Assembly: GCF_003334385.1 (NCBI RefSeq)
Contig: NZ_QOWN01000012.1
Reading direction: 5' to 3' (one strand)
Length of the DNA: 64,000 nt
Source of the DNA: Escherichia coli
GTDB taxonomy: Bacteria; Pseudomonadota; Gammaproteobacteria; Enterobacterales; Enterobacteriaceae
This document shows, in pieces, positions 18,465 through 64,000 of this stretch. Position numbers and translations under genes: made by a program. The notes under the pieces were generated by a model that was given only the letters and a program-made list of their open reading frames with translations, was not told the origin of the DNA and did not search any database. Within the stretch, counting starts at the first letter, position 1. Every line of letters starts with the position of its first letter.

Positions 18465-18645
18465 CTTTGTAGGCCTGATAAGACGCGCCAGCGTCGCATC
18501 AGGCATCGGAGCACAACTGCCGGATTCGGCGTGAACGCCTTATCCGATCTACGGGCCTCGTCCCTGTTGTGATAAAGGCATCAAATCCCAGACATGATAA
18601 GACGCGCCAGCGTCGCATCAGGCGATAAATGCCTGATGCGATAAA
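18465..18645. repeat. REP/BIME cluster (about four REP-like units)
   Basis: GATAAGACGCGCCAGCGTCGCATCAGGC occurs twice (18477.. and 18595..). Also present are TGCCGGATTCGGCGTGAACGCCTTATCCGATCTAC and GCCTGATGCGATAAAG. Confidence 0.85.
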
Positions 18646-60872: not shown

Positions 60873-61628
60873 TTGAGTGCGGGACGCCTGAATAAAAAAT
60901 CTCTGGGTATCGTGATGTTGTTATCGGTTGGACTGCTTTTGGCGGGCTGTTCGGGTAGCAAATCATCCGATACAGGAACGTATTCCGGCTCCGTTTACAC
61001 CGTGAAACGGGGGGATACGCTATATCGTATTTCGCGCACCACGGGAACCAGCGTAAAAGAACTGGCGCGACTGAACGGCATTTCCCCCCCTTACACCATT
61101 GAAGTTGGTCAGAAACTAAAACTGGGTGGGGCGAAAAGTAGCAGTATTACACGTAAATCAACCGCCAAATCAACGACCAAAACCGCATCGGTTACACCGT
61201 CATCAGCGGTACCGAAATCATCCTGGCCGCCAGTAGGGCAACGTTGTTGGTTATGGCCAACGACAGGGAAAGTTATCATGCCGTATTCGACAGCAGATGG
61301 CGGCAATAAAGGGATTGATATCTCAGCTCCACGGGGTACACCTATTTACGCCGCGGGTGCAGGAAAGGTGGTGTATGTGGGCAACCAGCTGCGTGGCTAC
61401 GGTAATCTCATCATGATTAAACACAGTGAAGATTACATTACGGCTTACGCCCATAATGACACGATGCTGGTAAATAATGGGCAAAGCGTGAAGGCTGGGC
61501 AAAAAATCGCCACTATGGGGAGCACGGATGCGGCATCTGTTCGCCTGCATTTCCAGATTCGTTACCGTGCAACGGCAATTGATCCGCTACGTTACTTGCC
61601 GCCTCAGGGCAGCAAGCCAAAATGCTGA
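60873..61628 (+). CDS. ygeR: LysM + M23-peptidase-domain lipoprotein YgeR (251 aa)
   Basis: TTG start inside track ORF 60849..61628. Lipobox LLAGC, a LysM domain (YTVKRGDTLYRISR) and an M23 body. Recognised. Confidence 0.9.
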   Translation: MSAGRLNKKSLGIVMLLSVGLLLAGCSGSKSSDTGTYSGSVYTVKRGDTLYRISRTTGTSVKELARLNGISPPYTIEVGQKLKLGGAKSSSITRKSTAKSTTKTASVTPSSAVPKSSWPPVGQRCWLWPTTGKVIMPYSTADGGNKGIDISAPRGTPIYAAGAGKVVYVGNQLRGYGNLIMIKHSEDYITAYAHNDTMLVNNGQSVKAGQKIATMGSTDAASVRLHFQIRYRATAIDPLRYLPPQGSKPKC

Positions 61629-61661
61629 TGGCGAATTAATCAGCAGTCAGCAGCGTGGCAC

Positions 61662-61689
61662 TTGCTAAGGAGAGCGTAAGGTTTATAAT
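61662..61689 (+). promoter_or_regulatory. sigma70 promoter of glyU
   Basis: TTGCTA, 16 nt spacer, TATAAT, ending 18 nt before the mature tRNA 5' end. Confidence 0.6.
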
Positions 61690-61706
61690 GCCTTACGCAT
61701 CTCGAA

Positions 61707-61780
61707 GCGGGCGTAGTTCAATGGTAGAACGAGAGCTTCCCAAGCTCTATACGAGGGTTCGATTCCCTTCGCCCGCTCCA
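61707..61780 (+). tRNA. glyU: tRNA-Gly (anticodon CCC)
   Basis: 74-nt sequence GCGGGCGTAGTTCAATGGTAGAACGAGAGCTTCCCAAGCTCTATACGAGGGTTCGATTCCCTTCGCCCGCTCCA. It folds as a cloverleaf by hand with anticodon loop TTCCCAA and an encoded CCA. Confidence 0.95.
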
Positions 61781-61914
61781 TGACCATTCTTAAAGTATCT
61801 CAACTTACTGAATCCTAAGGGATATGGCTTTAAGCCTTCCGATAGTTTTACTCACTGTAACCAACACTGTGACTAACTTTGTTGAAATTGTGAGCAGATC
61901 TAAGGTCTCAGTAC

Positions 61915-63522
61915 ATGCTCAATTCCAGAACTTATCTTTATCAGCGGAATGGCGTCTTCTATATCCGTCTTAGGATGAAGGCCGCTGGTCCCTTCCCGGC
62001 TTCGCTTCCACAACATAAACGTTATAAACTTACGTCAGTATCATTACGGACTAAGGACAGACGTACCGCTATGGCTCACTCTCGGCACATCAAGGCAGCT
62101 CTTAGGGCAATCCATGCAGACAGACCAGACACTTCCTATGAGGAAATGAGGGAACACCTTAGGGATATCGCTGAGTGGGAATTGTCTACCGGGCGTTCAG
62201 ACCTCTTTGAGTCGGACATGAGAGACCTGTATCGTGACCAGTACGGAGAACTCGGTGAGAACCTTACGGATGCCTTGGCGAGTGAACTGCTTAGTATTGA
62301 CCAGCATCGCTACATTCATGAGGCCTTGGGAGTACTTAAGGCGTGTATGAAGCGTATCGAAACGGGAGACAGTAAGCCTCTTATAGATTATGTCGATGGA
62401 TTTGATGATATTGATCGGTCGAATGGTAAGGCCCCTGCGTCCCAATCTGTAAGTACTCCAGAAGTTAAACCCGGTGTCACCGTAGAGAGCCTTTTTGAGC
62501 AATACGAAGCGGAGAATTCACAGAACTGGAAGCCTGCCACCTTAAGGGAAAACAAAGCGTCTCATACTGCGTTACTCGAAATCTTTGACCATCTGGGCCT
62601 TAATGATGATGCCAATGCGATAACACGTGCTGACATACTTAGTGTTCGTAATGTGCTCCAGCAGTTACCTAAGAATCGCAAGCAGCGTTTCAAGGATGCC
62701 ACGTTGATTGATCTTCTGAACCGTGAAGATAAGACCGATTGTCTGGATGTGGTTACTATCAATAATAAATATCTCATTAAGATGGCGGCTGTCTTCAAGT
62801 GGGCTGTACGTAATGACCTTATTAAAAAGAATATGACAGAAGGGCTGGAACTGAAGGCTCCCCAGCGTAAAGCCTCAGAGGCCCGTAATGCTTTCTCTAC
62901 GGAGCAGGTAAACCAACTATTGTCTGCCGCCCAAGTTTACTCACAGAGGCCTTCTGGTAAGCCCTATCACTATTACGTTACCGTTTTGGCTGCTATCACT
63001 GGAGCAAGACTTAATGAAGTAGCTCAGCTACAGGTCAAGGATGTCAGAGCCACAGAAGCCGGAACCGTTTATATCCATATCAATGAGGACGACAGTAGCT
63101 TACCCGGTAAGAGTATCAAGAACGCCCACAGTGATCGCTGTGTCCCACTGATCGATGGTGCCTATGGTTTTGTATTGGCGGATTTTATGAAGCTGGTAGA
63201 AGCCCGCAGAAGCGCTTTAGGTGATGATGCTATGGTGTTTGACGGTCTTCGTCTTATGAAGAATGGCTACGGTGAGCAAGTAAGCAAATGGTTTAACCGG
63301 ACGTTGTTACCGAAAGTTCTAACTGATCGTGACGGTATGGCATTCCATTCGTTCAGGCATACAGTTGCGACACAGTTAAAACAACATGGCGTCGAGTTGG
63401 CTTACGCTCAGGCGATCATGGGACATAGTTCAGGGTCTATTACATATGACCGTTACGCTAAAGAGGTTGAGGTGGATAGGTTGGTTAATGTGATGGTAGG
63501 TATTTATAAGGAGGTAAAGTAA
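61915..63522 (+). CDS. tyrosine-type site-specific integrase (535 aa)
   Basis: C-terminal catalytic signature: AITGARLNEVAQL (Arg), HSFRHTVATQL (HxxR) and MGHSSGSITYDRYAK (His/Tyr). The N-terminus YLYQRNGVFYIRLR resembles the DUF6538-type arm domain. Confidence 0.88.
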   Translation: MLNSRTYLYQRNGVFYIRLRMKAAGPFPASLPQHKRYKLTSVSLRTKDRRTAMAHSRHIKAALRAIHADRPDTSYEEMREHLRDIAEWELSTGRSDLFESDMRDLYRDQYGELGENLTDALASELLSIDQHRYIHEALGVLKACMKRIETGDSKPLIDYVDGFDDIDRSNGKAPASQSVSTPEVKPGVTVESLFEQYEAENSQNWKPATLRENKASHTALLEIFDHLGLNDDANAITRADILSVRNVLQQLPKNRKQRFKDATLIDLLNREDKTDCLDVVTINNKYLIKMAAVFKWAVRNDLIKKNMTEGLELKAPQRKASEARNAFSTEQVNQLLSAAQVYSQRPSGKPYHYYVTVLAAITGARLNEVAQLQVKDVRATEAGTVYIHINEDDSSLPGKSIKNAHSDRCVPLIDGAYGFVLADFMKLVEARRSALGDDAMVFDGLRLMKNGYGEQVSKWFNRTLLPKVLTDRDGMAFHSFRHTVATQLKQHGVELAYAQAIMGHSSGSITYDRYAKEVEVDRLVNVMVGIYKEVK

Positions 63523-63984
63523 ATGGCAATTCCATATGAACCAGCGGAGTTCAAGAAAGAAGCTTTTAACTGTCCGTACTGTCAGGCGTATGCTAAGCAA
63601 AAGTGGGACCAATTATTTCCTTACTATGATGAAATGGCTTTCCCTATGCATGTGTCACAATGTGAGCGCTGTGAGGAGTACTCATATTGGTTTGAGGAGT
63701 CCCTCCTAATTCCTGCATCTGCGAATGTTGAAATGCCGAACCCAGACATGCCGGAGGATTGTAAGTCCGACTACATGGAAGCCAGGAGCATCGTCAATCT
63801 GTCTCCTAAAGGGGCCGCTGCACTTCTCCGTCTATGTCTTCAGAAACTGATGGTCCACTTGGGCGAGCCGGGGAAAAACATTAACGACGACATTAAGTCT
63901 CTCGTGGAAAAAGGGTTACCTCCCATAAGCGCTAACTTAAGGGTTGAACCATCTGAAGAATGCGACGCCTCGGTGCCTCGTTAA
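63523..63984 (+). CDS. zinc-ribbon + DUF4145-like protein, apparently C-terminally truncated or disrupted (153 aa)
   Basis: The start abuts the integrase stop (TAAATG). CPYC(17-20)..CERC(47-50), followed by [49 protein letters not shown], which I recognise as the first half of the DUF4145 fold. The tail [19 protein letters not shown] is unrelated. Confidence 0.6.
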
Positions 63985-64000
63985 GACGATGCCTCGCGTT

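Follow-up and report, generated by a model that had tools for sequence, protein, structure and literature searches.

Probable IS186 disruption of a RAZR (PD-T7-4) homologue in an Escherichia coli glyU islet

At the right-hand edge of the 64,000-nucleotide stretch of Escherichia coli DNA analysed here (the window), a gene that by its sequence is a close homologue of the phage defence protein RAZR, also known as PD-T7-4, runs intact for 134 codons and then passes directly into the terminal DNA of the insertion sequence IS186. This is very probably an insertion of IS186 into the RAZR homologue of a small islet at glyU, with an inactive pseudogene as the predicted outcome. The identity of the two sequences, the position at which one gives way to the other and the fit of that position to the IS186 target motif are plain from the comparisons set out below. 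In the proposed course of events a small integrative islet would occupy the chromosomal glyU, with a tyrosine integrase and the RAZR homologue directly behind it, and a copy of IS186 would have transposed into the sequence aGGG-TTACCT-CCCC at codons 130-135 of that homologue. Translation would then proceed through 134 native codons and 19 codons of IS186 terminal DNA to a stop, the catalytic Arg and His and the Asp-Asp-Arg oligomerisation residues would be lost, and the gene would be left as an inactive pseudogene.

PD-T7-4 was found in E. coli by functional selection (Vassallo et al. 2022, PMC9519451) and was renamed RAZR, for ring-activated zinc-finger RNase (Zhang et al. 2026, PMC13017515). 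It is a single-protein abortive-infection system, the Cys4 zinc finger of which binds 12- or 24-meric phage rings such as the T7-type portal and SECphi27 Gp77; 24 RAZR subunits assemble round the ring, after which single-stranded RNA is cut non-specifically by the DUF4145/HEPN domains and translation stops (PMC13017515). The DUF4145 domain had previously been placed in the HEPN superfamily (PMC3710099). The features of the window that matter for the present case are the following.

61707..61780, plus strand: tRNA-Gly(CCC), glyU, the islet integration site (ARAGORN, Rfam tRNA)
61752-61780: attL, the 3' 29 nt of glyU
61915..63522, plus strand: tyrosine integrase, intact, 535 aa (Pfam PF00589 E=8e-18, PF20172 E=2.3e-06)
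63523..63924, plus strand: RAZR/PD-T7-4 homologue, 5' two-thirds, codons 1-134 (PADLOC, near-identity to the H7 allele, PDB 9y9c alignment)
63912..63924: left half of the IS186 target, with aGGG at 63912-63915, the 6-nt core TTACCT at 63916-63921 and CCC at 63922-63924
63925..63984, plus strand: read-through tail into IS186, 19 foreign codons and stop (translation; the DNA is IS186)
63924..64000, minus strand: right end of IS186/IS421, 77 nt (exact inverted repeat match; 100% identical E. coli copies)

The broken open reading frame

The open reading frame at 63523-63984 on the plus strand encodes 153 amino acids. The original prediction, made from the letters alone, had described it as a zinc ribbon followed by a DUF4145-like domain which breaks off in its middle near 63925 and is succeeded by a foreign tail of 19 residues, and this description is borne out on each count. 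The Cys4 zinc ribbon is present as C17PYC20 and C47ERC50, which align with the CxxC pairs of RAZR-Ec. A Pfam DUF4145 match that passes the cut-off (E=8.2e-07) spans residues 86-137 and covers just positions 2-55 of the 88 in the profile, and the PADLOC PD-T7-4 profile is matched by residues 4-134 at positions 3-136 of 211 (E=3.1e-59). Family likeness ends at residue 134, with the switch at 63924/63925, and so what remains at 63523..63924 is the Cys4 zinc-ribbon domain, the linker and the first third to half of the DUF4145/HEPN domain. Past the break the other two forward frames are interrupted by stops and contain nothing of the family, again as had been claimed. The family length of 220-240 amino acids given there was too long, the homologues examined all being of 209-211.

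Comparison with other genomes places the break at the same base. Megablast of window 63400-64000 against 5,426 complete E. coli genomes returned matches of two classes: in 20 genomes query positions 1-525 only, that is up to window 63924, and at thousands of places the last ~77 nt alone. None of the 5,426 genomes spans the junction or carries the same insertion event, and the best coverage halts at 63924. For a simple insertion the right junction is expected to read GCGCTTATGGG-TTACCT-CCCCGCATCCAGC (also written CAACCCTTAAGTTAGCGCTTATGGG-TTACCT-CCCCGCATCCAGCAAGC), which is to say the IS186 left end, TTACCT and the rest of the gene. Scans of species-representative genomes and metagenomes gave 0 matches to the observed junction and likewise 0 to this predicted one.

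The IS186 end and its target site

The suggestion of a mobile-element end in the last ~75 nt of the window proved right, and the element can be named. The 23-nt sequence CATAAGCGCTAACTTAAGGGTTG, which we take to be the terminal inverted repeat of IS186, stands at 63924-63946 as one exact copy in the window, with none in 100 shuffles, and is followed by 54 nt of subterminal non-coding DNA up to the window end. These 23 and 54 nt are identical to K-12-type copies of IS186/IS421, and the 77 nt together are 100% identical to copies in more than 2,600 complete E. coli records. Extended to the 80 nt of 63921-64000, the sequence recurs with 100% identity at 8,423 places, spread over 2,144 of the 5,426 E. 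coli genomes, with a median of 3 copies of the identical IS186 end per genome. At two such places that were examined the adjoining gene, on the opposite strand, is annotated 'IS4-like element IS421 family transposase', IS4-like IS421 family being the PGAP name for IS186. Annotated copies elsewhere have a 370-aa IS4-family DDE transposase (NCBIfam class IS4 family transposase) between the inverted repeats, its stop codon 171 nt inward of the element end, and the full element from repeat to repeat is 1,337-1,339 nt in the copies measured. On this layout the window ends in the transposase-distal (right) end of IS186/IS421, pointing leftward, and the transposase gene would sit on the minus strand past base 64000.

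Just 77 nt of the ~1.34-kb element are included. Its other inverted repeat and its transposase would lie beyond the window, as would the duplicated target core and the 3' 75 codons of the RAZR homologue. Exactly 77 nt is also a common k-mer size of short-read assemblers, and so the window end is probably a contig end inside a repeat.

IS186 inserts at 5'-GGGG(N6/N7)CCCC-3' with duplication of the core (Lee et al. 2016, PMC5009759). Over the site the intact allele reads AGGGTTACCTCCCC, with codons GAA AAA GGG TTA CCT CCC CGC, or aGGG-TTACCT-CCCC when divided as a target. The window reads aGGG-TTACCT-CCCATAAGCGC over the same bases, a junction of the form aGGG-TTACCT-CCCATAAG. Two other IS186 copies, compared at both ends, have the structure GGGG-N6-CCCATAAG...CTTATGGG-N6-CCCC, and the left junction here matches them, sharing the CCCATAAG junction. 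Because the CCC is alike in target and junction, the element boundary is ambiguous within 63922-63924. The target is one base off the motif, with AGGG in place of GGGG, and departures of this size have precedent, since 7 of 59 IS186 sites showed one or two mismatches to the flanking palindrome (PMC5009759). With a site only one base away from the IS186 target motif, genuine transposition is much likelier than a chance mis-join. Elsewhere in the window, 2285-2299 is a perfect unoccupied IS186 target, GGGGGAACCTCCCCC (GGGG-N6/N7-CCCC), and the sole perfect one in the 64 kb.

The junction might instead be one edge of an IS186-mediated rearrangement: once IS186 had inserted, the 3' part of the RAZR homologue, and possibly the islet cargo as well, would have been lost or relocated through recombination with another IS186 copy or through a deletion next to it. 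This is unlikely, but it is the strongest of the alternatives: the window stops short of the other IS end, nearby partners do occur, as with a same-orientation IS186/IS421 some 5 kb along the glyU-ETT2 region of E. coli M217, and in mutation-accumulation lines IS recombination took place at ~1/8 of the rate of IS insertion, mostly between close copies (PMC5009759). Against it, the arrangement at the left junction is that of a canonical IS186 target, for which primary transposition suffices, and no such deletion at the locus is seen among the 5,426 complete E. coli genomes. Simple insertion is retained as the default reading, and we infer that the 3' remainder of the gene lies ~1.34 kb further on.

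Very improbable is an assembly artefact, by which the contig would have been wrongly extended into a repeat with the gene intact in the real genome. The k-mer length of the IS186 segment and the probable ending of the window within a repeat would fit such an error, but it is a true junction, not a false one, that normally leaves a contig ending k bases inside a repeat, and a random mis-join is not expected to fall on the rare target motif of IS186 (PMC5009759).

There is practically no chance that the product is a natural short DUF4145 variant, or the window end a structured RNA gene, as the original prediction had allowed. Nothing speaks for either beyond the open reading frame and the three copies of GCCTCG (confirmed at 63967, 63975 and 63991), whereas the tail is 100% IS186 DNA, the exact 153-aa product was absent on look-up in a public assembly protein collection, and the length falls well short of the homologues noted above. 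The GCCTCG copies belong to the conserved subterminal DNA of IS186, and no separate meaning of the triplet beyond that was found. The structured RNA gene was rejected on two tests: Rfam gave no match at E<=1 in 63400-64000, and neither strand of the 77 nt gave a fold better than its shuffles (z=+0.4 and +0.5).

The glyU islet

The gene order at the window end is actS/ygeR, tRNA-Gly(CCC), the 535-aa tyrosine integrase and the 153-aa open reading frame. The upstream core genes are 100% identical to those of many E. coli chromosomes, and the locus is the xdh-glyU region beside the ETT2 secretion island. Rfam gathering-level matches further back in the window fall on Sib RNA (3979-4129), 6S RNA (ssrS; 4778-4961) and naRNA4 (18472-18549), all on the minus strand and all ordinary E. 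coli chromosomal RNA genes.

The limits of the islet can be read from E. coli H7, in which the 29-nt tRNA 3' end recurs as a direct repeat 4,768 nt downstream with 27/29 identity, giving attR; the two repeats are at L001:13353-13381 and L001:18121-18149 and are the counterpart of window 61752-61780. Between the tRNA 3' end and its copy the H7 islet is ~4.8 kb long; besides the integrase and RAZR it carries just two genes, both unannotated (234 aa and 158 aa), for which no significant match was found in Pfam or PADLOC. The integrase has an N-terminal DUF6538 domain (PF20172) and a catalytic Phage_integrase domain (PF00589), and its counterpart in H7, of equal length, is annotated 'site-specific integrase'.

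Coupling of the zinc-ribbon gene to the integrase, another part of the original prediction, is direct: the integrase stop TAA occupies 63520-63522 and the ATG of the RAZR homologue follows at 63523 with zero spacer. Of the 5,426 complete E. coli genomes, 191 have the pair at glyU, always stop-to-start, and this arrangement is seen in H7 (L001:13516-17845), M217 (L004:7336-13138) and O103:H2 strain 12009 (L005:9316-12745). Cargo behind the pair varies, with a KilA-N protein in O103:H2, a DUF6971 protein and a 375-aa hypothetical in M217, and two hypotheticals in H7. The impression is of a module for integration and defence that is conserved at glyU, with the integrase-RAZR pair as its constant part and a tail that varies. 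A gene of the PD-T7-4 family that abuts or overlaps an integrase gene has been described (PMC9519451), and so the integrase coupling of RAZR here, which takes the same abutting form as published, is not new.

M217 has in addition its further IS186/IS421 copy (L003:4004-5342 / L004:14930-16042), next to ygeQ at the ETT2 edge, in the same orientation as the copy in the window and with GGGG-GAGAAT-CCCC as its own target. Copies such as this could be partners for IS-mediated deletions in the region.

The intact allele and the consequence of the break

The intact allele is WP_048666022.1, a DUF4145 domain-containing protein of 209 aa found in E. coli H7 (NZ_CP010171.1), SY3626 and EC24, in each case within the same glyU islet and without IS186. 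Over 61600-63924, a stretch which takes in the tRNA-Gly, the integrase and RAZR codons 1-134, the window is 99.9-100% identical to these three genomes and differs from H7 at 1 position in 2,325 nt. The H7 gene is thus the same allele in the same islet, and differs in being intact, full length and free of IS186.

Relationship of this allele to RAZR extends over its whole length. The PADLOC PD-T7-4 profile is matched at positions 3-209 of 211 (E=2.9e-100) and the Pfam DUF4145 profile at 2-79 of 88, and the only related PDB entry is 9y9c, the RAZR-Gp77 complex (E=1e-102). With RAZR of E. coli UMB1727 the intact allele shares length, Cys4 zinc ribbon, conserved linker, DUF4145/HEPN domain, the catalytic R...H and the DD..R oligomerisation residues; the copy in the window differs, being cut at codon 134 by IS186 and left without the active site. 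An intact ancestor had been supposed to be part of a defence module, and a more specific statement can now be made, as the intact gene on its own would be a whole defence system, RAZR/PD-T7-4.

Over its whole length the intact allele is 73.5% identical to RAZR-Ec, and from residue 80 to the end 91%, whereas the zinc-finger domain (codons 1-65, window 63523-63717) is only 40% identical. The linker (RAZR residues 66-79), for which a role between zinc finger and HEPN domain is reported (PMC13017515), is conserved, with 14 residues here against PAAGNVELPNPDMP in RAZR-Ec. A variable zinc finger next to a conserved remainder is in keeping with published work, in which the zinc finger is the part of RAZR that varies and that sets phage specificity (PMC13017515). 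Given that role, the divergence of the zinc finger suggests that the intact allele may recognise phages other than those sensed by RAZR-Ec.

In RAZR, mutation of R146, H154, D179, D180 or R184 reduces or abolishes defence, either R146A or H154A abolishing it, and higher-order oligomerisation depends on D179, D180 and R184 (PMC13017515). By alignment, R146/H154 of RAZR-Ec correspond to R144/H152 of the intact allele, which lie past codon 134, as do the Asp-Asp-Arg residues, located after this pair in the VDDRITR segment. The gene is predicted to be inactive because the break removes both the catalytic Arg/His and the oligomerisation residues. We infer from mutants of a 73.5%-identical homologue that the truncated product would be catalytically dead and unable to form the active assembly.

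The start codon and the upstream DNA of the truncated gene are unchanged and the zinc-finger domain that binds the trigger is complete. The truncated product might then not be inert, still binding phage portal or recombinase rings as a dead decoy or acting as a dominant-negative partner of another RAZR; or the IS186 target in this group of alleles might be a means by which a costly abortive-infection toxin is switched off time and again. Both ideas are long shots beside the inactive pseudogene.

The correct label for the 153-aa open reading frame is an IS186-disrupted RAZR/PD-T7-4 pseudogene; to call it a short DUF4145 protein of a new kind would be wrong. The event is one of the ordinary ways in which pseudogenes form, and all its parts were already known. 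The prediction for the strain is the loss of one abortive-infection defence, which is relevant only to predicting the phage sensitivity of this isolate. For the family, a near-consensus IS186 target lies within the HEPN domain of this group of RAZR alleles, and so the group is exposed to inactivation of this kind.
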